Shown one piece after another: positions 9,331 to 45,769 of a stretch of 64,000 bases of DNA. Both the position numbers and the translations under genes were made by a program. Origin of the DNA: Amphiscolops sp. MND2022 (taxonomy: Eukaryota); the NCBI GenBank assembly GCA_964187785.1, contig OZ076419.1:9362001-9426000 (forward strand). The letters run 5' to 3'. Each line of letters opens with the position of its first letter. The stretch's first letter is position 1. Below the pieces are notes generated by a model, which worked only from the letters and a program-made list of their open reading frames with translations, had not been told where the DNA came from and did no database searches.

Positions 9331-9332
9331 CT

Positions 9333-10900: not shown

Positions 10901-10965
10901 GCCAAAAGCTTGGAAGTCCTGCGATTGCCTGTGATCCACCTGTCGAATGTTCGGATCGCAGCGCA

Positions 10966-16895: not shown

Positions 16896-17044
16896 TGTTT
16901 CTCAAAACTCAAACTGTTTCTCGCTCAACACTTGAAATTATGTAAAAAAAACACTGAAAATATCAAATAAAGTTATGTAATAAAGTCACATTCTTCAGTC
17001 GTCGCTGGCCAATTGAGAAGTTGTAAACTCTGACAGGGCTACAT

Positions 17045-20000: not shown

Positions 20001-23000
20001 CGAATAAAAAAAAACAACGTTTTCGACTCTTCGTTCACCAATCGCGACCGTTCCAAATCAGAAGGGCTTCTTGAAGTGTATTTGCATGAAAAAAAATACC
20101 ATGATATGGATAAAACTTGAAAGGGAGGTTATAAAGAAGTTGGAACATTTTTTTCCGAAACACCAAAATGTAATCAAGAGATCAAAAAAACCATTTCTTA
20201 GTCTGCGCTAGTCAAAAAAGGAAACAGTACACTCTAGTCGCGCTATAAACGAATAATTACAGTAAAAATCCCCCAAAGAAACATGAGAACCAAAAGAAAC
20301 ACTAGCATTAAAGTCGGGTCAAACTTGAGGTCCAACGAAAAAGTGAGTTTTTTCAATCAAAAAAACAATGTTTTTCGATTTTCGCCAACCAATTGCGAAC
20401 GTATCGACTGAAAAGGGCTTCCAGAAGGGTATTTGTAGTGAAAAAGCACCGATAAATGGATAATCCTTGAAAGATAATTATGAAGTTTATCTGTATAAAA
20501 AAGCACCATAAGATAGATAAAACTTGAAAGGGAGGTTATAACTGAGATGGAACATTTTTCAGAATCACAAAAAGGTAATCACGAGCTCAAAAAAACGGTT
20601 TTTATGCTGCGCTAGCCAAGTAAAAAACAGTACACTCTAGTAGCGCGATAAACGAGGAATTGTAATGAAAATACCTCAAAAAAAGCATGAAAACCCAAAG
20701 AAACAACAACATTAAAGTCTGATCAAACTTGTGGTCCAACAAAAAACAAGGATTTTCCAACACAAAAACGTTTTTGACTCCTCGTTCACCAATTGCGATC
20801 GTATGCAATCAAAAGGGCTTCCTGAAGTGCATTTGCATTTAAAAAGCACCGTGAGATAGATAAAACCCGAAAAAAAAGGTTATAACGAAGTAGTAACATT
20901 TTCCAGATACACCAAAAATGTAATCAAGAGCTCAAAAAACACATATCTTAGTCTGCGCTAGCCACGTAAAAAATAGTACATTCTAGTAGCGCTATAAATG
21001 AATAATTGCAGTGAAAATCCCTCAAAAAGAAACATGAGAACCAAAAGAAACACCAACATTAACGTCGGATCAAACTTGAGGTCCAACGAAAAACGAGGAT
21101 TTTCCAACAGAAAAAACAACGTTTTTTGACTCTTCGCTCAGCAATCGAAATCGTAGCAAATTAGTAGGGCTTCTGAAGTGTATATGCATATAAAAAGCAC
21201 CGTGAGATAGATAAAACCCGAAAAAAAATGTTTTAACGAAGTAGGAACATTTTTTCCGATACAACATAAGGGTTTTCAAGAGCTCAAAAAACCCATTTCT
21301 TAGTCTGCGCTAGCCAAGTAAAAAACAGTACATTCTAGTAGCGCTATAAATGAATAATTGCAGTGAAAATCCCTCAAAGAAACATGAGAACCAAAAGAAA
21401 CACCAACAATAAAGTCGAATCAAACTTGAGGTCCAACGAAAAACAAGGTTTTTCCAACAGAAAAAAAACAACGTTTTTGACTCTTCGCTCACCAATCGCA
21501 ACCGTAGCAAATCAAAAAGGCTTCCTGAAGTGTATTTGCATGGAAAAAAGCACCATGAGATAGATAAAACTCGAAAGGGAGATTATGACGGAGTTTGAAC
21601 GTTTTTCAGATACACAAAAAATGTAATCACGAGCTCGAAAGAATCACATTTTCCAAACTGCGCTAGACAAGTAAGGAACAGTACACTCTTGTAGCGCCAT
21701 GAACTAGTAATTGGAGTTAAAACTCCCTAAAAAAACTGGAAAAACCAGAAGAAACACCAATTTTGATGTCATCAAACTTGAGGTTCAACAAAAAATTGAC
21801 TTTTTCCAATAAAAAAAAATGTTTTCCGATCTTCGCCAACCAATTGCGAACATATCGACTGAGAAGTGCTTCCTGAAGAGTATTTGTAGTGAAAAAGCAA
21901 CAATGAATGGATAATCCTTAAAAGATAATTATGAAGTTTATCCGTACAAAAAAGCACCATAAGATAGATAAAACTTGAAAGGGAGGTTATAACGGAGATG
22001 GAACATTCTTCAGAATCACAAAAAGGTAATCACGAGCTCAAAAAAACTGTTTTTATGCTGCGCTAGCCAAGTTAAAAACAGTACACTCTAGTAGCGCGAT
22101 AAACGAGGAATTGTAATGAAAATACCTCCAAAAAGCATGAAAACCCAAAGAAACACCAACATTAATATCTGATCAAACTTGTGGTCCAACAAAAAACCAG
22201 GATTTTCCAACAAAAAAACGTTTTTGACTCTTCACTCAACAACTGCGATCATATCCAATCAAAAGGTCTTTCAGAAGTGTATTCGCATGAAAAAAGCACC
22301 GTAATATGGATAAAACATCAAAGAAATGTTACAACGAAGTTGGAACATTTTTTCAGATACACCGAAAATGTAATCAAGAGCCTGAAAAAACTATTTCTTA
22401 GTCTGCGCTAGCCAAGTAGGAAGCAGTGCACTCTAGTGGCGCTATATACGGATAATTGCAGTAAAAATCCCTCTCAAAGAAACATGAGAACCAAAAGAAA
22501 CACCAACATTAAAGTCGGACCAAGCTTGGTCCAACGAAAAACAAGAATTTTCCAACAGAAAAAAAACAACATTTTCGACTCTTTGCTCACTAATCGCAAC
22601 CGTAGCAAATCAGAAGGGCTTCCTGAAGTGTATTTGCAAAGAAAAAAGCACCGTGATATGGATAAAAATTGGAAGAAAGGTTATAATCAAGTTGGAACAT
22701 TTTTGAGATCCACCAAAAATGTGAACACGAGCTGAAAAATTGCATTCTTTATTCTGCGCATGCCAAGTAAGAAGCAGTGCACTCTAGTAGCGCTATAAAC
22801 GAATAATTGAGGGTAAAAATCTCTCAAAGAAACATGAGAACCAAAAGAAACACCAACATTAAAGTCTGGTCAAACTTGAGGTCCAACGAAAAACAAGGTT
22901 TTTCGAATAAAAAAAAACAACGTTTTCGACTCTTCGTTCACCAATTGCAACCGTTCCAAATCCGAAAGGCTTCCTGAAAAGTATTTGCAAAGAAAAAAGC

Positions 23001-23553
23001 ACCGTGAGATGGAAAAAAATTGGAAGAAATGTTATAATCAAGTTGGAACATTTTTGAGATCCACCAAAAATGTGAACACGAGCTGAAAAATTGCATTCTT
23101 CATTCTGCGCATGCCAAGTAAGAAGCAGTGCACTCTAGTAGCGCTATAAACGAATAATTGCAGTAAAAATCCCTCGAAGAAACATGAGAACCAAAAGAAA
23201 CACCAACATTAAAGTCGAATCAAATTTGAGGTCCAACGAAAAACAAGGTTTTTCCAACAGAAAAGAACGTTTTTTGACTCTTCGCTCAGCAATCGAAATC
23301 GTAGCAAATTAGAAGGGCTTCCTGAAGTGTATTTACATTCAAAAAGCACCGTGAGATAAATAAAACCCGAAATTGTTATAACGAAGTAGGAACATTTTTT
23401 CCGACACACCAAAAATGTAATTAAGAGCTCAAAAAACATTTCTTAGTCTGCGCTAGTCAAGAAAGAAAACGATACACTCCAGTCGCGCTATTAACGAATA
23501 ATTGCAGTAAAAATCCCTCAAAGAAACTAGAAAACCGGAAAAAGCACCAACAG
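17045..23553 (+). repeat. Satellite array, ~350-bp monomer, about 18-19 diverged copies
   Basis: Anchor TTCTTAGTCTGCGCTAG recurs at ~17176, 17531, 17879, 18228, 18577, 18925, 19495, 19845, 20196, 20600, 20946, 21298, 21655, 22055, 22396, 22748, 23100 and 23441. The short ORFs here are repeat artefacts. Confidence 0.95.
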
Positions 23554-23868
23554 AAGTTACCAAGTTTGAAATAAACATCTTTGATGCAATCGTTTTGAAC
23601 TGTTCAATTTTTTCTTCGACAAAGCTCTTTCTTGACGCTCAACTTGATTGGCAGCTTCCTTTGCGCTCAGATAGGCGTAACGGGAGTTGCCACAAATCCG
23701 AAGTACTGCCTCTGTAACAAACATTGGATAGTGGTGAGTGTTTTATGTTTGTGTTTTATGATGCATTTTGACTGGAAGCAAATTTTTGAACAAAAGATAG
23801 GTTCACGAAGGCAAGTGTAACCTTGTTCTTCGACAAAGACATCTCATTGTCATAAACAATCAACATTA

Positions 23869-24820: not shown

Positions 24821-27296
24821 AACGGCCGAGAACAATCCTCAGACCAACTTTCAAAAAAGAACGTCAGTTTCTCCACCATTCAATAACGTCCTAGTTTTAC
24901 AACGGCCGAGGACTTTCCTCAGACCAGGTATGAGCGAAGTTGTCATTGATTGTTGATTGCACAAATGCGAAAGTCAGAACACGTAGTTCAAATCAGTATG
25001 AAATATATCCTTGTCGTAAAATCTAATTGTGTTCAAAACCCTCACTGACGATACTGGCCAAGAACGTTTTATCCAGGTTGGGCTTCAAAACGCACTTTCC
25101 GGAGATTTTTGACACGCTAAGTGTTTCCAGCTCGCTGAGTTCACCAAAAAGAAAAATTTGATTCACAGAAACATCGTCAGTTGGGCAAACTGAAAAGCTC
25201 TTATTCAGTGAAAATTGGCGGACAACAGCAATTGTTCTTCCCGAGCAGAGAGCGAAGACTTCCACTCGATAAAAAGCTAATTCTTTTGTCCACACCACAG
25301 CATTCGCCCAATTGTCATTCAATCTGGTATACGACAGTGAGTTGAAAACCAAACCTTCAGGGTTTTTCCAACGACCACTGAATGAAAAAGTATTTTCGAA
25401 ACGCAAGCAGAACTTCCGACAAACGTCCGGAACACTCGTTAAGGCGGCGAAGTTCGTCTCATTAGACATGTGAGTCGCCCCGTTGTTTGGCAAATCCTTC
25501 TGATTGGAATCTCATTGGAATTCTAATACTCAACTCAAGTCAAAACATCAAAATTGAATTTTCTTCATGCATATCAAACGGCCGAGAACATTCCCCTCAG
25601 ACCATGAAAAAAGTAAAGTCATAACTATAAATGCTATATAAAAAAAAGTGGGAAAGTTTTGAAACTCAGATTGGGGAAAAATTTAAAGTTCCGATGGGCT
25701 GCAAAACGGCCGAGGACAATCCTCAGACCAAGAGTAATGACATTCGGCATTTATTTCAAGCACAGATATGCCGTCGAAACAAAATAAATACAACTTCTCA
25801 CACAAAAATTGTTGTTTCCTGCAGACCGAAAAACAAACAAAAAACACAAGGACTGAAAGAAAAATGAACCATAATAGTTCAAACCTCATTGCAAAAACGA
25901 GGCTGCAAAGAGCAAAAGCGAAATGTCGAAAAGTTCGGTTTTTGTGAAATATTTATATGGAAGTAATTCACTTGTTTGCTGTGAACAACCTATCTCATTG
26001 GAATTCTAATACTCAACTCAAGTCAAAACACCAAACCTTTCTTCTAGTTTAGAATTCAAATTGCTGAGAACATTCCTCAGAACGATGGAAAAAACGTTGA
26101 AGTCATATTCATAAGTAGAGATGCAAAAACAAACCGACCAGTGGCAAACTTCCAGAGTTCAGAATGCAAAAATTTTTTTGAATAGCAGCACAACGGCCGA
26201 GGACAATCCTCTGACCAAGTATGATAACAGCAGGCAAAACTGAAAGTTGCAACTTCTCAGCAAAAATTATTAGTTTACTGTCTAGTAATTTAATAAACTA
26301 CAAATTTCCGCAAAACGAACCAAAACAGTTCATAAGTCAACGCAAAAACGAGGCTGAAGTGAGCATCAGCGAAATGTCGACAGAAAACTTCGGGATTGCA
26401 AATGTTTCATTCGGAATTTACCTCAGTGCAGGAAACAGCCGAACCCACTGATATGCCAATATTTAAATCGAGCCAAAACATCAAACCTTTTGTCTAGTTT
26501 AGAATTCAAATTGCTGAGAACATTCCTCAGAACGATGGAAAAAACGTTGATGTAATATTCATAAGTAGAGATGCAAAAACAAACCGACCAGTGGCAAACT
26601 TTCAGAGTTCAGAATGCAAAAATTTTTTCAAATTGCAGCACAACGGCCGAGGACAATCCTCTGACCAAGTATGATAACAGCAGGCAAAACTGAAAGTTGC
26701 AACTTCTCAGCAAAAATTATTAGTTTACTGTCTAGTATTTTATTAAACTACAAATTTCCGCAAAACGAACCAAAATAGTTCATAAGTCACCGCAAAAACG
26801 AGGCTGAAGTGAGCATCAGCGAAATGTCGACAGAAAACTTCGGGATTGCAAATGTTTCATTCGGAATTTACCTCAGTGCAGGAAACAGCCGAACCCACTG
26901 ATATGCCAATATTCAAATCGAGCCAAAACATCAAACCTTTTGTCTAGTTTTGAATTCAAATTGACGAGAACATTCCTCAGACCGATGGAAAAAACGTTGA
27001 TGTCATATTCATAAGATGCAAAAAACAAACCGACCAGTGACAAACTTTCAGGGCTCAGAATGGAAAGAACTTTTTGAATAGCAGCACAACGGCCGAGGAC
27101 AATCCTCAGACCAAGTATAACGATACCAGGCATATATTTTAGAGCACAAAATGGTCGTTCGATAGGAACTGAAGAACGTTCAAAGTGAACAAAAAATAGA
27201 AACCCAAAAAGTGAAGAAACCCACAACAGATGTCTAAAGGTTCAGATAAAATTTTGAAAGCAATCAGTAAAACGGCCGTGGACAATCCACAGACCA
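24821..27296 (+). repeat. Array of a ~26-bp hairpin motif AACGGCCGAGGACAATCCTCAGACCA, including a ~450-bp tandem triplication (26025-27120)
   Basis: Copies at 24821, 24901, 25577, 25705, ~26059, 26192, ~26509, 26642, ~26959, 27088 and 27270, plus an outlier at ~28145. Confidence 0.8.
25023..25493 (-). pseudogene. Probable C-terminal fragment of a CACTA/EnSpm-type transposase
   Basis: VFNSLSYTRL..N.AVVW..LAFYRVEVF..TIAVV...ETLSVSKISGKCVL..FLASIVSEGFEHN matches the xNSxxYxR..F..I..KC..FEH pattern I associate with animal EnSpm transposase C-termini. Recognised by eye only. Confidence 0.45.
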
Positions 27297-27994: not shown

Positions 27995-28435
27995 CCTAAT
28001 TATATGAAAAGACAGACTGTGTAAGTCATCAGACTAGAATATTTCAGAAACCATGAGATCTATATTGTTCGAGAAATACTGTATCGAATTCGAAAAACAA
28101 TGAAACAGCTGATTTAAAATGTATTTTGCAATTCGCAAACATGCGAGGCCGAGAAGAAAGCTCAGACCATGAGGGAATAATCAAGACTCGGATTTTTCTA
28201 AAAGATTGTTTTTCGTCTGAAAAATCATTCAACACAGAGGCGAAGCGGTGCTTCGCAACAAATGACGAAGACATCGATTCAATCGAATGCGTATATATTC
28301 AACAGTTCAACACTTATGCTGTGCAATCGGGAGGCTGCAGGTTCGAATCTCTCTGGGGTTTTGGCTTTATAATTTTAAAACCGTCAACTATAAATTTATC
28401 GCAGGAATCACCAAATAAATCCATACAAATAGTGA

Positions 28436-29815
28436 TGTTAGACGTTATTTTCATAAAAATATGGTGATTTTAGACGTTATTCCCAAAAAAGTGATTTCAG
28501 GCGTTACTCCTCAAAAATAATGAATTTAGACGTTATTCTATGAACAAACGGTGATTTCAGACGTTATTCCAGTAGAATACGGTGTTCTTAGATCTTATTC
28601 TACCAAAAAATAATTTTAGACGTTATTCCTCAAAAATACGGTGATTTTAGACGTTATTCCCAAAAAAGTGATTTCAGGCGTTACTCCTTAAAAATAATGA
28701 ATTTAGACGTTATTCTATGAACAAACGGTTATTTCAGACGTTATTCCATTAGAATACGGTGTTTTTAGATCTCATTCTACCAAAATACAGTGATTTTAGA
28801 CGTTATTCCACAAAAATACGGTGATTTTAGACGTTATTCCCAAAAAAGTGATTTCAGGCGTTATTCCTCAAAAATATTGAATTTAGACGTTATTCTATGA
28901 ACAAACGGTTATTTCAGACGTTATTCCAGTAGAATACGGTGTTCTTAGATCTTATTCTACCAAAAAATAATTTTAGACGTTATTCCTCAAAAATACGGTG
29001 ATTTTAGACGTTATTCCCAAAAAAGTGATTTCAGGCGTTACTCCTTAAAAATAATGAATTTAGACTTTATTCTATGAACAAACGGTTATTTCAGACGTTA
29101 TTTCATTAGAATACGGTGTTTTTAGATCTCATTCTACCAAAATACAAAGATTTTAGACGTTATTCCACAAAAATACGGTGATTTTAGACGTTATTCCCAA
29201 AAAAGTGATTTCAGGCGTTATTCCTCAAAAATATTGAATTTAGACATTATTCTATCAAAAAACTTTTATTAAAGACGTTATTCCAGTAGAATACGGTGTT
29301 TTTAGATGTTATTCTACCAAAATAAAGTGATTTTAGACGTTATTCCTCAAAAATACGGTGATTTTAGACGTTTTTCCCAAAAAAGTGATTTTAGGCATTA
29401 TTCCTCAAAAATAATGAATTTAGACGTTATTCTATCAACAAACTGTTATTTCAGACGTTATTCCAGTAGATTACGGTGTTTTTAGATCTTATTCTACCAA
29501 AATACAGTGATTTTAGACGTTATTCCACAAAAATACGGTGATTTTAGACGTTATTCCCAAAAAAGTGATTTCAGGCGTTATTCCTCAAAAATATTGAATT
29601 TAGACGTTATTCTATCAAAAAACGGTTATTATTCCAGTAGAATACGGTGTTTTTAGATGTTATTCTACCAAAATAAAGTGATTTTAGACGTTATTCCACA
29701 AAAATACGGTGATTTTAGAGGTTATTCCTAAAAAAGTGATTTTAGGCGTTATTCCTCAAAAATAGTGAATTTAGACCTTTTTTCACCAAAAAACGGTTAT
29801 TTTGGATCTTATTCC
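28436..29815 (+). repeat. 30-bp minisatellite with a 6-mer (177-180 bp) higher-order repeat
   Basis: Unit GATTTTAGACGTTATTC-N-AAAAATACGGT. The variant TCCCAAAAAAGTG recurs at 28481, 28658, 28838, 29015, 29195, 29375 and 29555. Confidence 0.95.
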
Positions 29816-29940: not shown

Positions 29941-30048
29941 AAATCTAACCTAAAAATTAAACACAAAGTCCTTTTTTCAAGCGGCTTCAGGAAACGCGGT
30001 ACCAAAAAGCGTCCTTGGTGCTAGCCGGGTCATTAATGTTACCCTGAT

Positions 30049-31806
30049 TGTCGCAGGCTGCCGCTTGCGATGGGACACGAATCACAACGACTACCAACGA
30101 GCAAGAAGCCGTACCAGGCACTTTACCCACATTTTAGGAGAATTATTCAAAACTTTCAGTAAAACTCACTGTTGTTTTATTACATTCATTATGTATTCGG
30201 ATTTTGGTTTTATACCGCAAAATGAATATTAGTCTGATTAATACCCGTGTTAGAATTCAAACGGTGATGATTATGTTTATATGATGAATTGTTTAGCAGT
30301 GACGTAATGTAATAAAGGCAAGTGTAAAGCTTAACGGATACGAGTTCAAGTGAACAAAACTCCAATTCCGGAGACGTCACTTGAGCTCATTCCGTCAGCC
30401 AATCATAACGCTCTATCCTGCTGTGCATTATACTGTCATATTTGTTTGGCCGTATACGGCCACTTGACGCTATACCTTATTTTGTAAGCGGACCAAAGGT
30501 AAATGGCCGGATTAGGCCATTCAAACTATTAGCTTATGTAATTGTTTAATTTGAGTATGCATGTTATTTAAAGTCATGTAGGATTATATTTGTATTTAGA
30601 AGGCGCTAATGGGGCTATTTAAACCCAATTGATGTAGTTGTGACCACCAGTCATGAAACTCTAAATACTAGTCCAGTGGACTAAACCGGTCACTTTAATT
30701 GGCTGGTACCTTTGTCAAATGGCCGAATTGGGCCACGCTCACCTTTTATTAGTGCATATAATTAGAGTTGCTACCTGATGAATTAGCCTGCGTGTGCAGG
30801 CACGTGCCTTAGATACCTCACATACCTGTTGACACAAATATTACTTGGAAGTGTCTGAACATGTATTTGCCTTGATGTTAATTGTTACGGGAATGCGGAC
30901 TAAACCGTCCCTCGTACTTTGAAGCTATCATGAGTATGTAATTGAGTACATTCTTCAGGAATTCTTCCGACCCTAAATTCCTGAATCACTTTGATGCAAT
31001 AGCTATTTTTCAATCCTCGTAAAATCTCATGATCCTTTAAAATATGTAAACATTTCAATAATATGTGGAAAATGTGAGTGTCATGCCTCAGGAGGTATAT
31101 ATATACACCCCCCTCCTGAGGGGACACAATTTGCTTTCTTTTCATAACGTTCAGTTCATTAATATTACCAGTTTTCCGAACTAATTCAATATTAACCTCG
31201 GACTTTCTTTCTAAATGCCTACTACTAGGAAACAGAAGAAAGCAAGGAAATCTAGAGAAGCAGAAATGCTATCAGACATTGAGAATTTGGATATTATGCT
31301 CGGAGGAAACCACTTTGATAGAAATGAGAGAAGTGAAAGTGTGAGTAGTAATCAGGCCGGTAGGCCAGAAAGCTTATTTGGAGATGAATTTGGAGATGAG
31401 AATGAGAATGAGTTCCCAAACCCGGGAAATAATGGACCTAGCCCAAATACCGAATTAGGCCAAAATTCAATCAGAGAGAGTTCAAGTGTTGAGATCAATA
31501 GACTGTCGAGTGAGTTAAATTCCCGTATATCTCGAGAGATGGATGAAATGATGAATAGCGTCAGTGTTCAGATTCAAAGGGCCATAAATGAGGCAATCAG
31601 TAGTCAAATTTTGCCTCAAATCCAAAATGCAGTTATGGCCGGGTCGGGACAGTTGACCAAAGAGAGATGGAACGTTCCGGCTGAGAGACCAGAAGGATAT
31701 TCCGAAGTGCTGCAAAACTTAGAACCTAGGAACAATTCTAAGAGTAAGCAGGCCAATGACCGTCTCAAAGTTGGATTCACAAGCACGAATTCTCGTGCTT
31801 ACGACA
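30049..31806 (+). repeat. 5' LTR of element A (1758 bp)
   Basis: Matches 43957-45716 with roughly a dozen substitutions and one 2-bp TA indel (by eye, ~99%). Confidence 0.95.
31086..31130 (+). promoter_or_regulatory. Candidate LTR core promoter: TATA-like run inside a 10-bp stem, followed by conserved GGACACAATT
   Basis: CCTCAGGAGG-TATATATATACACCCC-CCTCCTGAGG. The CCTGAG..GGACACAATT motif is also in the B LTRs and the solo LTR, about 85-100 nt before the gag ATG. Confidence 0.5.
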
Positions 31807-31818
31807 TGGTGACAGGAG
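31807..31818 (+). promoter_or_regulatory. Primer-binding site TGGTGACAGGAG
   Basis: Immediately follows the LTR end ACGACA; identical in B (62703-62714, minus strand). The priming tRNA cannot be identified without the host tRNA set. Confidence 0.85.
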
Positions 31819-32925
31819 AAAACGAATCTCCAATCGAAGTTCCTGAGTTTCTCACGGGACGAATGCCATCCACCAGTCATCTCAACAGATCAAATGATGA
31901 CCTTCCCCTGCTCGACACGACGATCCCGGCGCAAAAACGACCCGCTCTGGCACCAGAACAAGACCCGATCAACAGGCTAGCTGACGTCTTGACAAGTATG
32001 CAGAATCGCCCGACAGCCCAGCAACTCACAATCCGCCCAGTCAACTCAAACACTATGACGTTTGACGGCAAAAGTGAGAAGTTCGAGCTGTTTGAAGATT
32101 TATTCCATACGATGATCAAGATGCAGCCTGACATGACGGAACAAATGAAAATTAATCATTTTCATTCCTTGCTGAGAAAGAATGCACTCCAAACATTCAG
32201 AAACATCAGCACTGCAAATAGACAAACTCTTGAGGACGTACTCGTTATTTTCAGACGAAAATACGTCAAACCTGAATCACAGGCAACTGCCAAACATAAA
32301 TGGCACCGCGATCCTTCGATCCTAACACGACCAAATTGCCAGATTTTCTTGAGGAGCTCAATCAAGGAGCAGAAAAGGCCCTTGGAGACAATGCTCAGAA
32401 AATGATTGACAGTCTCCTATATGCCAAACTGCCACCAAAGCTCAAAAGATCAGTAAACATGGCTAGACTTGAGAATGGCTCGTACGATGAAATTGTCGCT
32501 CATCTAGAAAGAGAACTAGAATTGAATGCACTTGAAGAATCAGAAGACCTACCCATGGCGTCAATGACATCATCGGTCACGAAACCAAAAACTGTTCCTT
32601 CTAATACACAAATAAGTGATATTACGTGCAATTATTGTAAGGAAAAGGGCCACATGGTCAAAGATTGTGAAAAATTAAAAAAGAAAAAGGAAAAAGATGC
32701 CCAACAAGGCAAGACGACTCAGAAGAAGACCTATCCTAAATGTGGTACTTGTGGCAAGACGAACCATCCGGAGGAGAGATGTTGGCAAGGGGCAGGTGCG
32801 CACCTTAAACTTAAACGCACCAGACCAGAAGACTCGTCGGACAATGACCCCGACTCCAAAACCTTAAAATCGAACTACAGACCAGCATCTTCCAACAGCC
32901 AATCCTCATCAAGTAAAGATGAGTC

Positions 32926-32935
32926 AAAAAACTAG
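32926..32935 (+). promoter_or_regulatory. Programmed -1 ribosomal frameshift site A_AAA_AAC at the gag stop
   Basis: TCA AAA AAC TAG. The -1 frame (CTA at 32932) is open and in frame with the pol ATG at 33034. The same heptamer plus TAA is present in B (61588-61597). Confidence 0.85.
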
Positions 32936-33033
32936 CTTCGCCACGACTCCACTATGACCAACTAGTCTCTGTCCGACAATACATCAAATCGGACCCTCCA
33001 ACTAAAAACTTTCATAACTATCAGCAACAATTA

Positions 33034-36000
33034 ATGGGCTATCCTTCTGTTGTCTGGCAGCAGCAGATGGAAAAAGCTACCATTATTACTTACAATAATA
33101 CCCATTTGTTCCAGAAACCAATTCCTGTATGGGATCCTGATTACACATCTGCTTTCAATAGCCGATTCAGGCCCATTCCCTTGGTAGACGATTACAACCC
33201 TACCTACATAGACCCCGATTATGGACGAGATCCCTATTGGGACACGGAACTCTACAACCAAGATCTGCTACAATTCCAATACGTCATTGATGATATCGAA
33301 CTCTACAATAAATTAGCCCATGAAAATCCTCCAATCACCCACAACAAGAAAACTAGAGCATTGATTGAAACCTGGCAAATGAATGATGGCACAAGCCATC
33401 CGGTGTTCCCAAATCCCCTGGGGACCGAGACTACCGAAAACATGGAAGAAACAGTCCCACAGTCGCTATTAGATGAAAGTCAGTTCCAAAACGTTCTTAT
33501 TACCAGAGATGGTGAACCGGACTGCATACCCCTGTCCACCAACATAAATCTGAAATGCAAGAAACGCATGCTATATTTCCCCATGGATTTTGGGGAATTG
33601 ACCATAGACGGACTTATCGACACTGGTGCATTATCCAGTGCAATCCCAGAGATGGACCTCCGGAAAATCAGACTCTTATCGCCACAATCAGTAATCCGGG
33701 AAGGTCCGCCTCCAAACTTCCAGATAATGGTCGCAAATGGGCAACTAGAGACTCCCAAGAGTACAATAGAGCTCAAATTCGAAGTTGGTGACATAGAGTT
33801 CCATGAAATTTTTATAGTAATGGAACACTTGACAGGACCGATTATAGGACTGATGTTTCCACAGAGAAATCATACAGTACTGGACATGAGACAAGGAATA
33901 CTGAACTTTCCGTTCTTTTCAATGCAGCTCAAAACAGCTGATCATAAATACTCGAACGTGCTAGAGCCAATTCTAAACCCTACTGAAATAACCATTCCGC
34001 CAAACGACAGAGTCCTGATTAGGACCAATTCCTTCTTATACCCTGAAAACACGGTCACAGGAATTTTGCAACCGAGCGACCTTCTCCATGAAGAAGGCGA
34101 CATCACATTCTGTCCAGCCTTGGTCACCTTGAATGACGGCAATATATTGATACCGGTGAATAACTTCACAGACCACCCTTACAAGCTCAAAAAGGGACTC
34201 CATATTGCTAGTTTTTCAGTCATGACGCCAGAACAAATGAAATATGTCAAACCGGTAGACCCGGCATCAACCTGGCATTTGTTGCAAAACGACCAAGAGC
34301 AAGCAGCCCATTACGTCAGTAGCCTGATCAAGATGAACAAAAATTCACAAAACTCCGAAAACTACTGGTTCCCAACTCCGGAAAATCCAGGGAATCCAGA
34401 AGAACACACTCCAATCCAGAAAAGAATCCTCCGCGAACTACAAGCCCTACAGGACCTAGAATCCCTTGATCCCACGAAAGACGAGGAATCTAGGGGAAAA
34501 TTCTTGGGAAATTTTGATTGGAAAGACTCCACCCTAATCCTTGAAGAGAAAGCCAAAATTGAAGAAATGCTAGTGGAATTTCACGACATTTTTGCGAGAC
34601 ACAGATTTGATATAGGCATGAATGAGGAATTCAAGGTGAAATTGACGCCTAAGGACGATTCCCCAGCCTATAGCCAAAGCCTCCCTGCGCCAATAAACTT
34701 GAAAGAGGACATATTAGTCGAATTAGCCATGCTCCATAAATATGGCATAATAACTACTTTACCGTTCTCGAAATACGCCAGCCCAATATTCGCGCAAAAG
34801 AAACCAAATGGGAAACTGAGACTTCTGGTTGACTTGAGAAAAATCAACAACCTAATCTCTGATGATTATATAAACAATAACCACCCAGTCAGTACCTTAG
34901 TTGATGCCGCTCAACACTTAGCGGGGAAAAAACTGTTCTGTAAATTAGACTGTTCACAGGCATACCACTGCCTGCCGATGGCTGACCAGCGATCAATTGA
35001 AATGTTGGCCTTCAATTTCGCCAGCCGCACATTTGCCTACAGACGATTGGCACAAGGCCTTAGTAGGGCGCTGTCCGCATTCTCCAGTTTCATGAGGGAA
35101 TACCTCGACAAAGTCATAAAAGCGGATCAGTGTGCCCAGTACGTGGACGATATCGGCATCGCAGCCAACGACGCTGACCATCTCATTGCTAACCTAAGAG
35201 CAACTTTCAAATGCATTCAGGAAGCAGGCCTTAAATTGACGATGCACAAGTGTCATTTTGGTGCCACAGAAATTGATTTCCTCGGACGAACGATTACTCC
35301 ACAAGGCGTCAAACCCCAACGGCAGAACGTTCAGAATTTTCTAGAAAAAACCAAATTTCCAAAGTCGAAAAAGGTTTTGCAAAGATATTTGGGTTTCCTG
35401 AACTACTACCGAAACTACGTCCCAAGACTGTCCGAACGCCTTGCTCCATTCTACAAGATGCTGAAAAGTGACGAAAAAGTCCTAGTATCAAGAGAATTGG
35501 TACAGCAATTTGAGGAAATCAACCGAGCTCTGGACAAATGTTGCGACTTAGCCTTACAACAACCCATTCCTAACAAGCAGATTGCACTCATGACAGATGC
35601 AAGTTTCGGAGCTGCAGGATACGCAGTACTCATTGAAGATGACCCGAGTCAGAAATTCACGTCAATCCGCAAATCATATGCACCGGTCGCTTATGGTTCA
35701 AAAACCTTCACCCCAGCCCAGATAAAGATGTCAATTTATGCAAAAGAATTTCTTGCGATTTATTTCGCATTCAAAGAATTTGGGCATATTTTTTGGGGAG
35801 CGCCGAAACCGGTCATAATTCTAACCGACAACAAAGCCGTAACAAGATTCTTTCAGACGAAAGTCGTACCCCCAGCTCTGTGGAATGCATGCGACTATGT
35901 AATTCAGGTCAATTTTGTCATTGCGCACATCCCAGGAGCACAGAATACGGCAGCGGATTACTTGTCCCGATTGGAAGCAGACCCAAAGGACAAATTAGTA

Positions 36001-38139
36001 ATGAAAATCCGAGAAGATGTACAAACGTTGCCAATAGAAATAAACGTCCAATCAGCAGGAGTCTCACAGGAAGAGCATATCTTCTACACCAACGACGACG
36101 ATGAGACTGAAGAACAATATTGGGCGAGAAAAGAAGCAATCAGGAAAAATCCTGTAATCGAAGACCCTACAGTTACAATACAAACTCTTTCCACTAATTT
36201 AGCCAAACAACAACCTGAAATACAAGTCCGATTGAGGAAAACAAACCAGATAATTATTAAGCAATCCAAGGATGCAGTATTACAACACTTGAAGGCGAAA
36301 CTCCTTCATGAAGACTACTCAGAAAACATACTGCAACAGGACGCTCGGTACAGGCATTATGCTAACAATCTGGAACGAATTGTCATCAAAGAAGACATCC
36401 TCACAAGGCAATATTTTGATGAAAAAGGGAATTTAAAGTACCACCAAATCCTTCTCCCGCAACATTTGCTGCAGGAATTACTCCAGTCCTTACACGGGAC
36501 AGCTCACAACCATCCGGGTATTTCAAAAATGCTGCAGGAGATCAGACAGAGGTATTACTACCCTAACATGGCGAAATATGTTAAAAAGTGGGTAGAAGGG
36601 TTCGAACAATGCGCAAAGGACAAACGAGTCCCAAATGCAACAATCACGCCCGAGCTACTTAACTTGCCGGAATGGGACCTTGGACCCGAAGACGCAATGC
36701 AAATTGACTTATTGCCGAACCTTCCCCCAAGTGGAGGATATGAAAATGTATTAACCGCGATTGATGTCTTTTCTCGATATTTGTTTGCATATCCGCTCAC
36801 AGATGCATCAGCGATCAATGTAGCCAAAGCACTCATTGATATTATGACCAAACATTCCTACTTACCGACGACGCTCATTACGGACAAAGGAACTGCCTTC
36901 ACTTCCACGATTATTGCAAAAATTACCCAAGTTTTAGGAATTACCCTAAAATGTGCAACGACAAAGCACCCGCAAACTATCGGGAAATTGGAGCGCACAC
37001 ATGCCTCATTGAAAACAAACTTGAAAATGGCATGTGGGGAATATCGCCGACAATGGCACAAATACTTGCCATTAGCAGTTCTGAACCACAATACTAGTTA
37101 TCATGCCAGTATCGGATGTGAACCGACAAGAGTGTTCCATGGAAGAAGCCCATACAACATCTTGGATCACAAGCTTGGAACAAATCCAAACGAGCAAATC
37201 CATCCGACTACTGAATTCGCAGAAGAAATCCAAAATCGGACAAAGCTCCTTATCGACAAGACGAAGCAAAACATCATGCAGTCATATATCAAATATAAGG
37301 AGTATTACGATCGAAAAGCCAAAGCCGCCCCACTCAAGGAGGGCGATTACTGTTTTGTATTACAGCCAAAAGCGGATCACCAAGGATCCAAAATTCCCTT
37401 CAGAGATTATCGATGGGTTGGACCATTCATAGTCCAGAAAGCTTTACCTAATGAGAACTACATCGTCCGCAGACTTAATACGAATAAAACGCAGATCTTG
37501 CATCGAATTCGTCTCAAAAAGTTCGTTCCTAATCAGCCGCTCGAGGACAATTTTCGAGAAGAGAGATTGCAGCCGGACGAAGACATAATCATTCCACAGG
37601 ACGACTTATACGTAATAACGTGGGACACAAATTTTGGCGAACAGCTAGCTACACGAGGCAGCGAGCCGATTCCGGCTAGCTTGACGAATGGCGAACGGCC
37701 GAACACGGCACAAGCGAATACAAGTGATGCAAGCGAGAATGAAAGTGATTACATAATCACGACTGATTGTCCGAATGACGTCAACGACGCACCACGCAGT
37801 AGAAATGAAGAAATGGAAAATGACGTCAGCAATGCTAATGAAGCTAATGAAGCAAATGAAAATGAAAACCCTGATTGGCCAAATCCGGCCGTTCCCCCAA
37901 AGAATCAAGAAAAATCTCTGCCGAATACGGCTGAAGGATTGAAAAATGACAAAAACTTTCCAGAAAGAAATTCGATCAATGAAAGCGATGCACAAAAGTC
38001 TCCAAAAAGGGGGGACGATATTATCGTGCCCGAAATATCAGAAAATGATGCTAGAAATGAAAGTCTGAGCCCTAGAGGAGGGAAATATAATCTCAGGCCC
38101 AATCCTAATCCAAACTATTCAGAAGACTTCAGATACTAA
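33034..38139 (+). CDS. pol: pol polyprotein (1701 aa from the first ATG; true start is the frameshift at 32932): protease, dUTPase-like insert, RT, RNase H, integrase
   Basis: LIDTGA (33619); YVDD (35140); LMTDAS RNase H; integrase H-x-H..C (one Cys replaced by Phe, EGFEQC); core QIDLL..AIDVFSRY..TDKGTAF..LER; GPF motif RWVGPFIV. Confidence 0.97.
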   Translation: MGYPSVVWQQQMEKATIITYNNTHLFQKPIPVWDPDYTSAFNSRFRPIPLVDDYNPTYIDPDYGRDPYWDTELYNQDLLQFQYVIDDIELYNKLAHENPPITHNKKTRALIETWQMNDGTSHPVFPNPLGTETTENMEETVPQSLLDESQFQNVLITRDGEPDCIPLSTNINLKCKKRMLYFPMDFGELTIDGLIDTGALSSAIPEMDLRKIRLLSPQSVIREGPPPNFQIMVANGQLETPKSTIELKFEVGDIEFHEIFIVMEHLTGPIIGLMFPQRNHTVLDMRQGILNFPFFSMQLKTADHKYSNVLEPILNPTEITIPPNDRVLIRTNSFLYPENTVTGILQPSDLLHEEGDITFCPALVTLNDGNILIPVNNFTDHPYKLKKGLHIASFSVMTPEQMKYVKPVDPASTWHLLQNDQEQAAHYVSSLIKMNKNSQNSENYWFPTPENPGNPEEHTPIQKRILRELQALQDLESLDPTKDEESRGKFLGNFDWKDSTLILEEKAKIEEMLVEFHDIFARHRFDIGMNEEFKVKLTPKDDSPAYSQSLPAPINLKEDILVELAMLHKYGIITTLPFSKYASPIFAQKKPNGKLRLLVDLRKINNLISDDYINNNHPVSTLVDAAQHLAGKKLFCKLDCSQAYHCLPMADQRSIEMLAFNFASRTFAYRRLAQGLSRALSAFSSFMREYLDKVIKADQCAQYVDDIGIAANDADHLIANLRATFKCIQEAGLKLTMHKCHFGATEIDFLGRTITPQGVKPQRQNVQNFLEKTKFPKSKKVLQRYLGFLNYYRNYVPRLSERLAPFYKMLKSDEKVLVSRELVQQFEEINRALDKCCDLALQQPIPNKQIALMTDASFGAAGYAVLIEDDPSQKFTSIRKSYAPVAYGSKTFTPAQIKMSIYAKEFLAIYFAFKEFGHIFWGAPKPVIILTDNKAVTRFFQTKVVPPALWNACDYVIQVNFVIAHIPGAQNTAADYLSRLEADPKDKLVMKIREDVQTLPIEINVQSAGVSQEEHIFYTNDDDETEEQYWARKEAIRKNPVIEDPTVTIQTLSTNLAKQQPEIQVRLRKTNQIIIKQSKDAVLQHLKAKLLHEDYSENILQQDARYRHYANNLERIVIKEDILTRQYFDEKGNLKYHQILLPQHLLQELLQSLHGTAHNHPGISKMLQEIRQRYYYPNMAKYVKKWVEGFEQCAKDKRVPNATITPELLNLPEWDLGPEDAMQIDLLPNLPPSGGYENVLTAIDVFSRYLFAYPLTDASAINVAKALIDIMTKHSYLPTTLITDKGTAFTSTIIAKITQVLGITLKCATTKHPQTIGKLERTHASLKTNLKMACGEYRRQWHKYLPLAVLNHNTSYHASIGCEPTRVFHGRSPYNILDHKLGTNPNEQIHPTTEFAEEIQNRTKLLIDKTKQNIMQSYIKYKEYYDRKAKAAPLKEGDYCFVLQPKADHQGSKIPFRDYRWVGPFIVQKALPNENYIVRRLNTNKTQILHRIRLKKFVPNQPLEDNFREERLQPDEDIIIPQDDLYVITWDTNFGEQLATRGSEPIPASLTNGERPNTAQANTSDASENESDYIITTDCPNDVNDAPRSRNEEMENDVSNANEANEANENENPDWPNPAVPPKNQEKSLPNTAEGLKNDKNFPERNSINESDAQKSPKRGDDIIVPEISENDARNESLSPRGGKYNLRPNPNPNYSEDFRY

Positions 38140-38366
38140 GAATTGAATTTTCCCGGAAATGGGAATTCTTTTCTTTTAGCTTTGTTTTTCCAAGCCCCTC
38201 TGAGAACTTCTTTTGATTAAATACTGGGGCATTCCAAAGGATCCCTAATAAAGAATAAATATGGGATCAAATCATCAAGAAAACAAAGTAGAAATATAAA
38301 TACGGCAATAAAACAGAAGAAATTAACAAGTTTACAACATGGAAGTACATAAATACATATGTACAT

Positions 38367-41300
38367 TTACTCATTAGAACTTGATTGGGATCGTCTACCC
38401 GCTGTTGGAGAACTGGAAAATCCAACAAGGCTGCTGCTCTATGAGCTGCTCTATCAAATGATCTATGAGCCCTAAAAACTCATCTCGATAAATGAACTCA
38501 GCATCAACGGTTACCCAAGAACGAAGCTGGAATGTATTGTAGAGCAACTCGAAGTGACGTAAAGCAGAAGCAGGTGGTTGTTTGAATAACACAACAGGAT
38601 CGAAAGCAGCAAGTCCTTTGATGATGTGGGTGTTGAGCCCAGAATGCTTGTGTAATCCATCCAAAAGGTGGCCTATATACTTGAGTCCGTCTGTGATGAA
38701 CTCCTTCTGAAGTTCTTTGGCAGTCTTTTGAATAGCAGCCGCTTCGCTCTTCTTGCCCGAATGCAACCCCTCTGCCCTCTGTTTGCAAACGTGAGGAACT
38801 TTACTGGACAATCTGAGCCTGGTAAGGAAGTCGTCTCCGTCCATAAGGGTCCCGTCTGCTGATTTGAAAGAGAGCAAATCGAACCAAGAACCTTCGGCAG
38901 AGATTGTGTCCGCAGTGAATGCTCGAGAACAAATCCGATGTATGAAGCGGCTGGTCTCTCCACATACATAGAATGAGGCATCGCGGCGTTGGGCCAAGTT
39001 GACAGAGAACTGGATACGTCTACAAATACAAAACCATGCCCAAAATGGGATACTACCTCAACTTCTACACCTGACAATAGGTATACTAACAATCGTTGAC
39101 CAGCTTGGAGAAGAAATCCAACTTGATGGTGAGAAACTCATCACAAATGAGTGACCACTCGAAACTTTGCACCTGCAACAAAGAAATCAACTCAATGGGC
39201 ATTTGGTTGTCAGACCAAAGATGATCCACTACGGGGATTTAGGGATACTGTACATAGTGGTGCTACATGACAATTAAAGCGACGCAATTACTTACTCTAC
39301 CCCTCACGCCTTGTCCTTGTTGTCGAGGTGCATGTATTGTCAAAGACCTCTGTACAGCCTTCCATTCACGAATTAGTTCCAGACAGAGGACTGGCAAAGT
39401 CAATAGGTTCAACTTGCAGGTTCGTATACCCTAAACAAGACCTATGGTGTACTTACTATATCAATATCACTGATCCATAGCCCTCCACAACCTGAACCCG
39501 ATCAATACCCTACAGAAACCCGGATCATGCCTGTTCAGGGAAGAAAGAAATCACTTACATAGGATAATTCGGGACTCCGCATCGCCCATTCCTCCCTGAG
39601 AGAGCCTCCTAGAGAGATGACAAGCCCCCTTAACACTGAAAAGAAATCAATGTGTCCGAAGATAGAGCGACTGGACTTATGCATCAGAGTCTCTAAGGAA
39701 AATTGGCTGAATTGGAAACAGGACTGGACTCCCTTTGAGAAGTATTCCGATTGATCAACCACACGGATAAAATCGGCGGGACACCCAGAACTGGCGACTA
39801 TGTCCACTTTAGGCGAAATTGAGGACAACAACCGAGCCAGGGATCCCAATTCCCCGTTTAGATTTGGAGAAGGTAGCCCACTCCGACAGATGAAGACCCT
39901 GCATAAGGTGTTTTCCTTCCAAAACCGGACTGACATGAAGCGATAACTGCCCACGTCCTCGAACTCGAGCCCAAGGCATTGCTCCTTCGTGATGTGATTG
40001 GCTATGTCACCCAGAGCGCAGTTGAAGAAGTGTTGGAAAATGACCTGAAAAGGACATAAGGGAAATCAACTCCTGGATGTGACATAACCGCCTAAAACGG
40101 CAGCTTAACGATATGATACTTACAGAGAATCGCTCTGCACTCCAGTCAAAGTCACATAGTGCAGCCTGAAAGTCCGTGTATGAACTGACCCTCGTCCATA
40201 GATTCCGGAGAAGATCGCGAATCAGGCGTGACCAAGGGATCAGTTCTGCCTTTGATGAAGTCGTCATAAAAGGGGAATCGCTCCCCTATGTCAACTAATT
40301 CAGCATGTATGAAGCAAGGCATTTCTTTGGCCAACTCGAGCCTGTTCATGATTCGACCGTCTCGCCCTCTGACCCTATGTTGAACTTTCCCTGTGACTGG
40401 GTCTACGCTTTTCAAGTATTCATAGCGCCAGCGCTGGTCCTTGCGCAGATGTTTCTCAGTTCGGTGGTGACGAAGAATTTCCCCCGGGCCTTTGGAACGT
40501 ATGGAGAATTTCTTTTTACATATATGGCACCATACCATATGTGAATTGTGTAGCGGGTCTGCAGGTCCTGAGATAAAAGACCGGGTCCACCCAATTGTTG
40601 AGAAAAACTCTTCTCTCATTGGCACTCCTCGTCTCTTCACCCTTTTCTTCTTCTGAGGTTGTTTCTTCTTAGAGCCTGTATGGGTCTTTTCAGCAATGGC
40701 GTGATCCCTTACTTGCGACAAAGTTTCATCGAGACAATTGGCATCACTGGTATCAGGATTTTCCAGAGATCGACTAGAAGGCCCCGGTACTTCACTCGGA
40801 TCCTTAAGCATGGAAGTTCCTGCTCTGGCAAAGTTTTGCTCAATTAAAGCTAACTCCCCTGCACTGTCCGATTCCTCATGAAAGGACGTGTCACCTGATT
40901 CGGTTCCTCCACTCATTTCTGCGTCAGTCTGAGAATCATAGCGGACTGGGGTAGTGCACCCTTCGGAGCCACTATCTCCACTACTTGAAGGATAAGGCGT
41001 TTGTGCGCGCCTGAAAGTTTTGAATTGATCAGTCCGTGACTTGGACGTCGCTGGGGCTCCTTTCACTGCCGATACAACCATATGCTCCATCGTGTTATAA
41101 GACAAACTCACAGTCTCATTGGTGAGCACCCTAAGGAGGTGGTACAGCTGCGGTTCAGTAAGTGTTATTACGGGGTGACCCTGCGGCAAAGTAATGGGCT
41201 TGGCTTCTCCAAAATACTGTTTGAAAGTGGCTCTACTCCTTCCAGACAGGTTATGTAACTTGGGACCAGTGACCCCAAGCTGGGAGGAGGAAGTCCCAGG

Positions 41301-42182
41301 GACCTGTGGGTCCTGGATGCCAAAATCGGATTCCTGCGTCTCTTCTGCAACTGAGTCCATGCTTCTCAATGTGTCCCGGTAACCATACAAATCTATCTGT
41401 TGATCACTACTCTCGTTCAACTGGTCCAACTCACCATAGTCAGAGACGTATGTTGTCGCTGTGACTGTTCCAGGCAACGGGGGGGCATCGTGGACAGAGG
41501 AACTGTTGTCTTCGTCTTGCTGGAGGAATGACACCTTACTTGTCTCATTGGGAACTCCTTCAACAGGCAGCAATTCCGGCAAGGTTGCATCAGGAGGCCC
41601 AGCAATCTCAAGCCCTGATTCCAATTGAGACAAACTAACTGTGGGGACTGTGCAACTGGCGTGGGGTATTGGAGTGCTAGACCGGGTGATTGGCATGTCT
41701 GCAGACAACTCAGTGCCGTGGGAGGCCTTCACTGCGCCCTCTCGCCTAACTTCTACTTTTTCTTCCACTATCTCGTTAGACAACTGCGTTTTCTGCATAT
41801 GTTCGACCATCTCGTCTGCATACGCCGTAACGTCAATGTTACTGTCTACGCTATGTGGGGAGATGACCTCAGCAACTTGATCCTGGCCCGAACGTTCAGA
41901 TGATTGGGAATTGGAATTGAGTCCTTGAGACTCAACTGATGGACCTACTAGTGGGGGTAGGATCCTGGTAATCTGGGAAGAAGAAACCAATGGAGGAAAT
42001 GGAGGGGGAGAAGGAACCAAGTTTCGAGTTGTACCCGGAACGGGAACGGAATACATGGATGAAATAACTTCGGTGGGATTGGCGGAAGCAGGGTTGGTTG
42101 GTGTATGAGAATCATCTAAATTCTGGCGATCTAAACACAAAGAGATGAAATTTGGCGGTATGCTTCCTCGATAGAAATCCAT
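38367..42182 (-). pseudogene. Antisense spliced accessory gene of element A (disordered N-terminus, NLS, BED-like zinc finger, hAT-transposase-like body), damaged by deletions
   Basis: ORFs 40152-42242, 40007-40267, 39535-39954 and 38395-38997 are collinear and homologous with B ORFs at 52205-56349. Conserved start MDF(Y/F)xGSxPPNFI; introns at 40045-40123 and 39173-39295. Confidence 0.8.
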
Positions 42183-43253
42183 TTGCCGCGTCAGAAGACT
42201 TCCGGAAGCAGTCTTGAAAATTTGAATGAAACGTGCTATCACGTGTTCTCTGATGGAAACAGGAAGCGCTTAATGAACGAAATTTAGCCCTGATCAAGCC
42301 AAGTTAGTTCAAAATAAAAATCCAGACCAACCTGTATTCGAAGACATCCTGCTGAGATAATTGAATCCACTGAGGATCTACCCAAATTCGGATGAGAAAA
42401 TTGGGGATGATGGCCGGACTGGGACAACAGATGGGGAGGAGGCTCGGATGGCTACAGAGAATGAAGGAGAAGTCCACAACTGTTCTGGAGCCCCAGGTAG
42501 ATAAAAGGACTAGCAAAAGGTATAAGAATCGAGTATAAAGGAATTCGAATGGTAATGGTAGTACAAATGAAATAAATAAGCAATGGAAGAAATGAAAGTT
42601 AGAGATCGTGGCTGAAGGTTTACCAGACTAATTTTATTTGATTATCTACATATTTAAATCTGTACACGGAGTCTGCCAGCGAAATATACAGGGCGTATCT
42701 CGCTATTTACAACCTTGTTACAATTAGTGGCCGATTATGGCCGTTTACCCCAACTTATGTTGCCGTTTTGTTCAGTTTTCCTAGTTACCTTAGTTAGATT
42801 TTCGCCATTTTAGTTATTCAAACTTATTATTTTCCGCCATCTTTATTATTCATTTTTCCAAATTTATCGAAGCTCAAATTTGATTGGCTGAAGCCATTTC
42901 AGTGAGTTTCATCCGACAAGTGCCGTTAATTGCTATCAAGCTTGATGTTGATTACCCACTTGAAGTGGAATTATTTGTTGTTGTCAACTTAACACCTCTT
43001 CGCATACTCACTTGAGAGAGTGAGAAAGGGGGTTCCATTCCGAATTTCAAAGGACAAATAAGCCGCTGAGATATTCCATTCTAGAAAGTTTACGACGGAT
43101 CAGGGCGATTGACCATGGTCTCTCCCGCCGAAATGGAACTCCGGGAAAATAGCCTGAATTGGCCTGAAGAAAATTTTGACAAATTCATTCAACTTTGAAT
43201 CCTGCAAGCAACAAGTCGCTCTGCGAATCAACAAAATTGCAAAAAAGATAATA

Positions 43254-44045
43254 ATGGCTAAATTTAACTTAGCAAGAAAGCTTTTCGACTTAGAAGAATC
43301 GGACTCAGAAGCCTCCGTAAATTCAGTCATCTACCTATCGAGTGACGAGGAGGAAGACACCTCATCTACCTCATGGGATTCCGATTGGTCCACGGACACC
43401 GAGGCTATCATAGAGAGAATCGAGAGGGAAGTTAAGTCAAGCCCAATTTTGATCGCAGGTCGCAAGATGACTGTGGAGGGGCAGGCTACAGAATCAGCAG
43501 CTGGACCAAGTAATCTTCAAATGCGGCCGCCTTCGATTCCGAAATTGGGATTCAAACACTTTGACGAGAAACTCCTGTATGCGCCGATGAGGAAGGCAGA
43601 AAGAACCCGGATAGAACTTTGCAACACAATTCTACCAGTGTTGGAATCGCCGTTGTCTCCGCCCGAACATGAGAGAGGGCCGTCCCAAGACGTGCTCATG
43701 GAACAGCCAGTTAGCACCAGCTTCCACGCATCTTACCACATCCAACAAGTACAGCCGTATTCGGATCTTAGTAAACAGTTGGGCCGTGGATGTATGGTCT
43801 GTGGAAGATCAGTGGACGAAATTAAACAAGAGAAGGTGAATTGGTACATGAGCAGATCTACAACGCGCAGTGAACCGGCATACATAACGGACTTGAGGAG
43901 AGAGGCCTACGAAAATGGTCTACATGCCGGAAGTCTTCTTTTCCTAGCACCCGCAGTGTCGCAGGCTGCCGCTTGCGATGGGACACGAATCAATACGACT
44001 ACCAACGAGCAAGAAGCCGTACCAGGCACTTTACCCACATTTTAG
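43254..44045 (+). CDS. ORF3 of element A (~263 aa, unknown function), last ~29 codons inside U3
   Basis: Intact frame with a homologue intact in B (50348-51133). Acidic VIYLSSDEEED and WDSDWSTDTE blocks, plus FHASYHI..CMVC. Confidence 0.8.
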   Translation: MAKFNLARKLFDLEESDSEASVNSVIYLSSDEEEDTSSTSWDSDWSTDTEAIIERIEREVKSSPILIAGRKMTVEGQATESAAGPSNLQMRPPSIPKLGFKHFDEKLLYAPMRKAERTRIELCNTILPVLESPLSPPEHERGPSQDVLMEQPVSTSFHASYHIQQVQPYSDLSKQLGRGCMVCGRSVDEIKQEKVNWYMSRSTTRSEPAYITDLRREAYENGLHAGSLLFLAPAVSQAAACDGTRINTTTNEQEAVPGTLPTF

Positions 44046-45716: not shown

Positions 45717-45769
45717 CTGATATAGATACAGACTTCTAATTCAGGTGTTATTCAAAAAAGACACAAAAT

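Follow-up and report, generated by a model that had tools for sequence, protein, structure and literature searches.

A gypsy-type LTR retrotransposon clade with a predicted gag start deep within the LTR and a protein-coding U5

During reverse transcription of LTR retrotransposons, a tRNA primes minus-strand DNA that takes in all sequence lying 5' of the primer-binding site (PBS), and this material ends up in both LTRs. Accessory genes such as HIV nef and MMTV sag lie at the 3' end, in U3, so that both LTRs carry them as well. In Ty1, the gag start codon lies 40 bp before the LTR end and the frame reads through the PBS, according to the accessible text of PMC10512236 and PMC3522557. The Gag fragments Ty1 p22 and Drt2, as described in the available part of PMC10951436, act through the capsid C-terminal domain. 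Troyka elements combine CG..CG ends with a 3-bp target site duplication (TSD), LTRs of 100-400 bp and a longer zinc knuckle, CX2CX8-10HX4C (available part of PMC12440569). Cer1/CERV was considered as a precedent and rejected as a different case, judging by the accessible text of PMC10309623. Apart from Ty1, the literature surveyed, in which older and subscription papers and repeat databases were thinly covered, gave no precedent for a gag/LTR overlap as long as that described here, and the available portions of PMC3095310, PMC11302176, PMC8282616 and PMC7175516 contain no comparable overlap.

The window analyzed here is a 64,000-nt stretch of AT-rich, eukaryote-like DNA from Amphiscolops sp. 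MND2022; an acoel worm as host would agree with the GC and LTR content given in PMC9911081. It holds two related LTR elements in opposite orientation, A on the plus strand and B on the minus strand, with pol regions about 80% alike (Table 1). The 5' and 3' LTRs of A differ at 15 of 1760 alignment columns. The repeats are true LTRs, with the right end of the 5' copy at 31806, because of their TG..CA ends and the TSDs found around A and in the flanks of solo LTR C. The box behind the TATA-like run is also present in solo LTR C, and transcription is predicted to start near 31128, about 1080 nt into the LTR. Neither AATAAA nor ATTAAA was found behind the TATA-like run of A. The putative PBS core may resemble the end of a leucine tRNA; a tRNA gene search of the window found none, and Rfam gave 0 matches for window positions 30000-46000.

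Table 1. Positions of the features discussed, in window coordinates
Feature	Position	Strand	Remarks
Left TSD of A, CTGAT	30044-30048	+	same 5 nt repeated at 45717-45721
5' LTR of A	30049-31806	+	1758 nt, TG..CA
TATA-like run with conserved box about 20-35 nt behind	31096-31131	+	run at 31096-31105; arrangement common to A and B
gag of A, whole	31215-32935	+	frameshift near 32310 breaks this copy
197 gag codons within the LTR (predicted R-U5)	31215-31805	+	
Basic leader, residues 1-14	31215-31256	+	7 K/R, no D/E
Long predicted helix, codons 83-142	31461-31640	+	hydrophobic stripe, period 3.85
In-frame ATG at the junction	31806-31808	+	last LTR base and first two PBS bases
PBS core, 12 nt	31807-31818	+	TGG start, no spacer after LTR; in-frame M-V-T-G-E; identical 12 nt in B
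Slippery-type heptamer A-AAA-AAC and gag stop	32926-32935	+	in A and B; pol open in -1 frame
pol of A: protease, RT, RNase H, integrase, gypsy order	33034-38139	+	Pfam, comparison with solved RTs
Third ORF of A, 263 aa	43254-44045	+	last 89 nt in the U3 end of the 3' LTR
3' LTR of A	43957-45716	+	TG..CA
LTR-only ORF of A, 204 aa	45125-45739	+	197 gag codons and 7 flank codons
Right TSD of A, CTGAT	45717-45721	+	
3' LTR of B	48712-50436	-	gag frame from 49297; open from second ATG 49246
Third ORF of B	50348-51133	-	
5' LTR of B	62715-64000	-	extends beyond window; gag ATG 63300; open from 63249 through PBS
Solo LTR C, A/B clade	12848-14517	-	1670 nt, flanks CCTAA/CCTAT (4/5 TSD match)

Pfam placed the protease of pol at residues 184-274, just below the cut-off, the RT at 589-754, RNase H at 824-948 and integrase at 1142-1313. 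Among solved structures, the RT of A is close to those of Ty3 and foamy virus. The protease–RT–RNase H–integrase order, TG..CA LTRs with a TSD in the 4-6 bp range, a two-lobe capsid and a CX2CX4HX4C knuckle are all as in Ty3/gypsy elements. Unlike these, A has a coding U5, a coding U3 start, no clear polypurine tract and a long antisense ORF. The A-AAA-AAC heptamer before the gag stop is likely a ribosomal frameshift site into pol. The pol of A falls in a cluster (P0005) of 1547 members at 90% identity; by this measure the family of A is a very high-copy, recently expanded one.

With Troyka, A shares the LTR organization and a gypsy-like domain order; nevertheless, identity with Troyka was rejected, as the ends, TSD, LTR length and knuckle described in the available text of PMC12440569 all differ. 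Gag of A begins in the 5' LTR and is read through the PBS as in Ty1. The overlap is nevertheless 592 nt, about 15 times longer, and includes a whole predicted domain, and A has gypsy rather than copia domain order and an LTR of 1.76 kb. The earlier note, which has Ty1 gag beginning a few codons inside its LTR, had called so long an overlap atypical; the accessible text of PMC10512236 gives 40 nt for Ty1. HIV nef and MMTV sag resemble the third ORF of A, whereas here it is the main structural gene that starts in R-U5.

The third ORF had no Pfam match. Comparison of A with B gave pN 0.21 and pS 0.90, indicating purifying selection, and the last 28 aligned codons, which lie within U3, are likewise constrained (pN 0.22, pS 0.80). 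As this ORF crosses the start of the 3' LTR and the first part of gag lies in the predicted R-U5, both LTR ends are coding. No polypurine tract adjoins the 3' LTR in either A (43877-43956, plus strand) or B (50437-50516, minus strand); the best 12-mer, about 50 nt upstream of the 3' LTR, has 11 purines in A and 9 in B, and the region is coding. A conserved pyrimidine-rich run that ends in CAG and is splice-acceptor-like was observed before the 3' LTR.

The gag ATG at 31215 lies 592 nt upstream of the LTR end, directly behind an in-frame stop (TAA, 31212), and is the sole ATG from the TATA-like run up to the gag start. From there the frame continues for 197 codons and crosses the LTR/PBS junction as YD-MVTGE, bearing out for A the proposal that about 197 Gag codons lie in the LTR and read through the PBS. 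Because no spacer separates LTR and PBS, the last LTR base, A, is followed by the TG that opens the PBS, giving a Met codon. The base at -3 is T at the first ATG in A, B and C, and G at the ATG of codon 18. Codon 18 may be the main Gag start, and leaky scanning could possibly yield two Gag N-termini; M occupies this position in just 138 of 193 hits.

Over 194 LTR codons, A and B differ with pN 0.253 and pS 0.603 (Fisher p 3e-12). The corresponding dN is 0.309 and dS 1.22, with dN/dS 0.25 (bootstrap 0.14-0.40), from this one pair of elements. The dS of the LTR codons is at the level of internal gag (1.24) and RT (1.22). Values of 0.73, 0.84, 1.15, 0.39 and 0.72 were obtained for the five other frames of the A/B alignment. 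By part, dN/dS is 0.07 for codons 1-17 and 0.10 for the helix codons 83-142, compared with 0.09 for internal gag, while residues 36-88 (0.86) show no constraint beyond an open frame. Across 35 codons, A and solo LTR C have 6, 5 and 18 differences at codon positions 1, 2 and 3, respectively. The LTR-coded gag codons are under purifying selection. A Gag initiated at the junction Met, with an upstream frame free of purifying selection, had been named in the earlier note as the outcome that would overturn its proposal; the upstream dN/dS of 0.25 is at odds with it. The DNA of further copies was sought with P0011 in metagenome, genome and viral contigs, and none was confirmed.

A search with the Gag of B gave 3150 proteins among 7999 candidates scored, the 120 best being ENA entries. 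Of these 120 best full-length homologues, 89 start with MPTTRK, and the [H/Y]D-MVTG junction is present in 115. The frame, the selection on it and the MPTTRK starts together support the claim that Gag begins deep in the LTR. Searching with the LTR-only protein gave 1046 short homologues among 1120 candidates; such a search returns open frames only, and whole frames are many among them. Among the 120 best, 104 break at the junction column, 7 run into gag and 9 fit neither pattern. The tails of the 104 comprise 100 distinct ones. In 104/104 cases the break is followed by one of the seven residues encoded by A-starting codons, as against 51/97 for the position thereafter. The first residue past the break is always of this type because the LTR ends in a terminal CA, so that the phase of the break marks the LTR end in proteins for which the DNA is not at hand.

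The distant family P0284 has 53% identity over the capsid region, and BLASTP found no match between its N-terminal part and that of A. Its short forms number 7568 proteins among 7604 candidates. In the 120 best short matches, 114 reach the junction (residue 126), where 87 break, and 18 run on into internal gag. All 87 breaks are in the predicted phase (87/87, versus 34/87 for the next residue), 2 of the 87 being degenerate junction copies rather than flank. For the distant families, protein tails rather than DNA show where the LTR ends. Mean tail lengths of 20 and 39 codons, where about 15 are expected, are subject to bias from clustering and ranking. A basic N-terminus and the MVTG junction, at residue 114 to 194, are shared by representatives down to about 40% identity. 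Of 150 distant representatives, 19 have a residue ahead of MVTG, and it is D, H, N or Y in all 19. Across this large group the gag portion coded in the LTR covers some 125 to 200 codons. As read from these proteins, a gag start within the LTR is a clade-wide trait. In a separate observation, P0143 has the LTR-coded part of Gag joined directly to the U3-coded tail of the third ORF, an arrangement that a head-to-tail LTR junction or a deletion would give.

The fold of Gag was modeled on P0248, a natural full-length relative (mean pLDDT 57). The LTR part is predicted to contain a short helix at 17-28 and one long helix at 83-142, with disorder elsewhere. This matches the conserved helical segment described in the earlier note. 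The pLDDT of the long helix block is 79-92 over residues 91-140. The capsid (276-439) has two lobes and lies wholly outside the LTR part, which ends at residue 197 (195 in the model), about 80 residues before it. It resembles dArc1 (Z 10.1, rmsd 10.5, 154 aligned), PNMA2 (Z 9.7) and Arc (Z 9.3), with rmsd values of about 10.5. Foldseek gave a best E of 2.6e-3 for the capsid and none at or below 1e-3. Arc and PNMA proteins also carry an N-terminal helical part. A search of solved structures with the Gag sequence returned only weak zinc-knuckle and annexin rows.

The hydrophobic period of the long helix peaks at 3.85, a peak reached by 1 of 2000 shuffles. A canonical heptad coiled coil was rejected, the period being 3.85 and not 3.5, and the helix may instead belong to a right-handed bundle. 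In structural comparison its matches are a mixed set of long helices and coiled coils, at a non-specific level (Z about 6). Two copies of residues 86-146 modeled together scored 0.02 against a mark of 0.32, a value that carries no weight either way on self-association.

The gag frame of B and its junction match those of A. Nevertheless, the statement that the same holds in B stands only in part, as both B LTRs have a TAA at codon 13 (63262-63264 and 49259-49261). The stop shared by the two LTRs shows that one template U5 was copied to both ends. From the second ATG, the B frames are open for 489 aa (5') and 188 aa (3') and the basic N-terminus is missing. An ORF of 190-205 aa with a basic N-terminus, proposed for both 3' LTRs, is thus found in A (204 aa) and not in B (188 aa, no basic N-terminus), that is, in one of the two. 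The TSD of B falls outside the window. In the LTR pair of B, 21 of 27 differences lie within about 200 nt of U3 (window ~63490-63690); this clustering suggests a conversion or recombination tract and an inflated LTR-based dating of B. Solo LTR C was overlooked in the earlier note; its gag-N frame, from 13347, ends after 73 codons. Only one of the three LTR-only copies in the window has a whole frame, the other two being damaged.

Taken as a whole, the observations are best explained by a coding-U5 gypsy-type clade in which the LTR holds the true 5' third of gag and the LTR-only frames are by-products, a reading that we consider probable with good confidence. Transcription would begin behind the TATA-like box, and about 85 nt later the first ATG would open Gag. 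The start near 31128 would give an R-U5 of about 680 nt that includes the 197 gag codons. The LTR-coded Gag is predicted to comprise, in order, a basic leader, a short helix, an acidic linker, a 60-residue amphipathic helix and a further linker. Beyond the LTR, the PBS would be read as M-V-T-G, followed by the capsid, two zinc knuckles and a -1 shift into pol. In full-length Gag the long helix is most likely an N-terminal assembly or targeting stalk. U5 is present in both LTRs because minus-strand DNA copies all that lies 5' of the PBS, and each 3' or solo LTR would inherit a promoter, a start codon and 197 codons running into random flank. The LTR-only ORFs are most simply seen as by-products of U5 copying; they would be conserved through selection on the 5' copy alone and decay after insertion. 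Because reverse transcription copies U5 into both LTRs, all the selection seen is already required by the role of the 5' LTR as the start of gag.

Initiation at the junction ATG, with the upstream frame separate or non-functional, would fit the invariance of this ATG and the G at both its -3 and +4 positions. It would also account for the 8 of 27 MVTG motifs in distant representatives that are annotated as protein starts, and for the location of the capsid and zinc knuckles wholly downstream. Nevertheless, it is highly improbable: the upstream frame joins on in phase without a break and is subject to purifying selection, and the ATG is the automatic product of CA joined to TGG. In addition, 18 ATGs lie from 31215 to the junction, so scanning would rarely arrive there. 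The chance that the repeat is no LTR at all, but an internal duplication or a mis-assembly, is practically negligible. It draws on the sequence just ahead of the 3' repeat, where A and B each have 6 purines among the final 12 nt and no polypurine tract, and is countered by the TG..CA ends, the TSD of 5 bp, a solo copy flanked by a TSD of its own and the presence of two independent elements. The junction phase, 104/104 and 87/87 in database proteins, also opposes it, and the TSDs together with the phase test refute such an artefact.

The earlier note had further suggested that 3' and solo LTRs express a dominant-negative truncated Gag by analogy to Ty1 p22. Like p22 and Drt2, the product would be a truncated Gag able to meet full-length Gag in trans. 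According to the available part of PMC10951436, p22 and Drt2 are capsid C-terminal-domain fragments made from an internal transcript, whereas the fragment here is N-terminal and has neither a capsid nor a fixed C-terminus. The analogy does not carry over, as the fragment lacks the capsid domain through which p22 acts. A variant that avoids the capsid is that the product poisons assembly through pairing of the long helix with full-length Gag, the control scaling with LTR number. The predicted promoter, leader and start present in each LTR-only copy would allow for it, as would the 1046 short homologues in the database. The helix is moreover the best-conserved and best-predicted part of the LTR, its structural matches being those non-specific ones at Z about 6. 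We regard this variant as improbable. The capsid C-terminal contacts that p22 and Drt2 need (PMC10951436, available part) are missing from the fragment, its tails are arbitrary flank, and 2/3 of the LTR-only copies in the window are damaged. Furthermore, a pol cluster of 1547 members at 90% identity gives no hint of tight control, and the conservation is already explained by the 5' copy.

Returning to the favored by-product reading, the P0284 family offers a clue to how the overlap could lengthen. Here two or three copies of the junction unit stand in tandem. Among the 120 best short matches, 14 pass the first junction and break later; in 13 of these the break directly follows another copy of the LTR-end motif, as judged by eye. 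Repeated junction motifs are rare in the A/B family (1 of 240 proteins) and were found with a strict pattern in 2 of 150 representatives. The late breaks are most simply read as a shift of the LTR end by 9 to 28 codons into gag, brought about by priming at a later PBS copy. Tandem in-frame units of LTR-terminal CA plus PBS would serve as alternative priming sites; priming at a later copy would shift the earlier one into the LTR, and in this way the LTR end would probably move downstream and the overlap grow. In this clade the LTR end probably moves.

The reverse course, in which the LTR-coded N-terminal domain is new and the start codon moved up into a non-coding U5 rather than the LTR into gag, concerns the origin only and is compatible with the rest of the explanation. 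It is less likely, although it retains a real share of probability. For the LTR part, Pfam yielded nothing above cut-off and the Atlas nothing usable, and the length of this part, 114 to 197 codons, varies between distant families that can barely be aligned there. These points agree with a start that moved upstream, but a basic N-terminus is seen in 7/7 of the distant representatives inspected whose N-terminus is seemingly whole (residues 1-15 contain 4-8 K/R). Profile matches to P0252, P0259 and P0254, a faint profile match to the P0284 helix (E 0.03 among 10 sequences) and the later-copy LTR ends in 13 proteins likewise point away from it.

An LTR end that ratchets into gag could make each LTR a cassette of promoter and gene for the assembly helix of Gag, and could be combined with translation of thousands of solo and 3' LTRs as Gag-N/host fusions, acting as a helix-based, dose-dependent brake on particle assembly and as a source of new chimeric genes. 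This combined proposal is speculative and judged rather unlikely. If the fragments are translated, the clade would be a natural setting in which to ask if solo LTRs regulate their own family or give rise to new genes. The tandem junction copies provide a testable route for LTR boundary movement and LTR growth. The locus breaks the working rule that the LTR is regulatory and gag internal, as a third of gag lies in the LTR and the other LTR end is coding too. Annotation tools that split LTR from internal sequence would cut gag in two and label solo LTRs as host genes; short LTR-only proteins already number 1046 in the public protein set, plus 7568 for the sister family P0284.

Other features were noted in the window. 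A long antisense ORF, in pieces in both copies, lies between pol and the third ORF (A 38398-42269, minus strand; B ~52500-56350, plus strand). It is conserved and shows a synonymous excess in 3/3 pieces compared and a C2H2/BED-like motif, and it presumably resembles hAT transposases. Pfam gave this no support, and the Atlas, searched with one piece, gave only non-specific helical matches. At 6478-11267, 301-nt direct repeats 97% alike lie 4.5 kb apart. Between them, a minus-strand ORF has a faint aspartyl-protease match (E 0.05), and the region is probably another, short-LTR element. Tandem arrays occupy 17000-23600, 25900-27200 and 28400-29800, with units of about 350, 450 and 180 nt.
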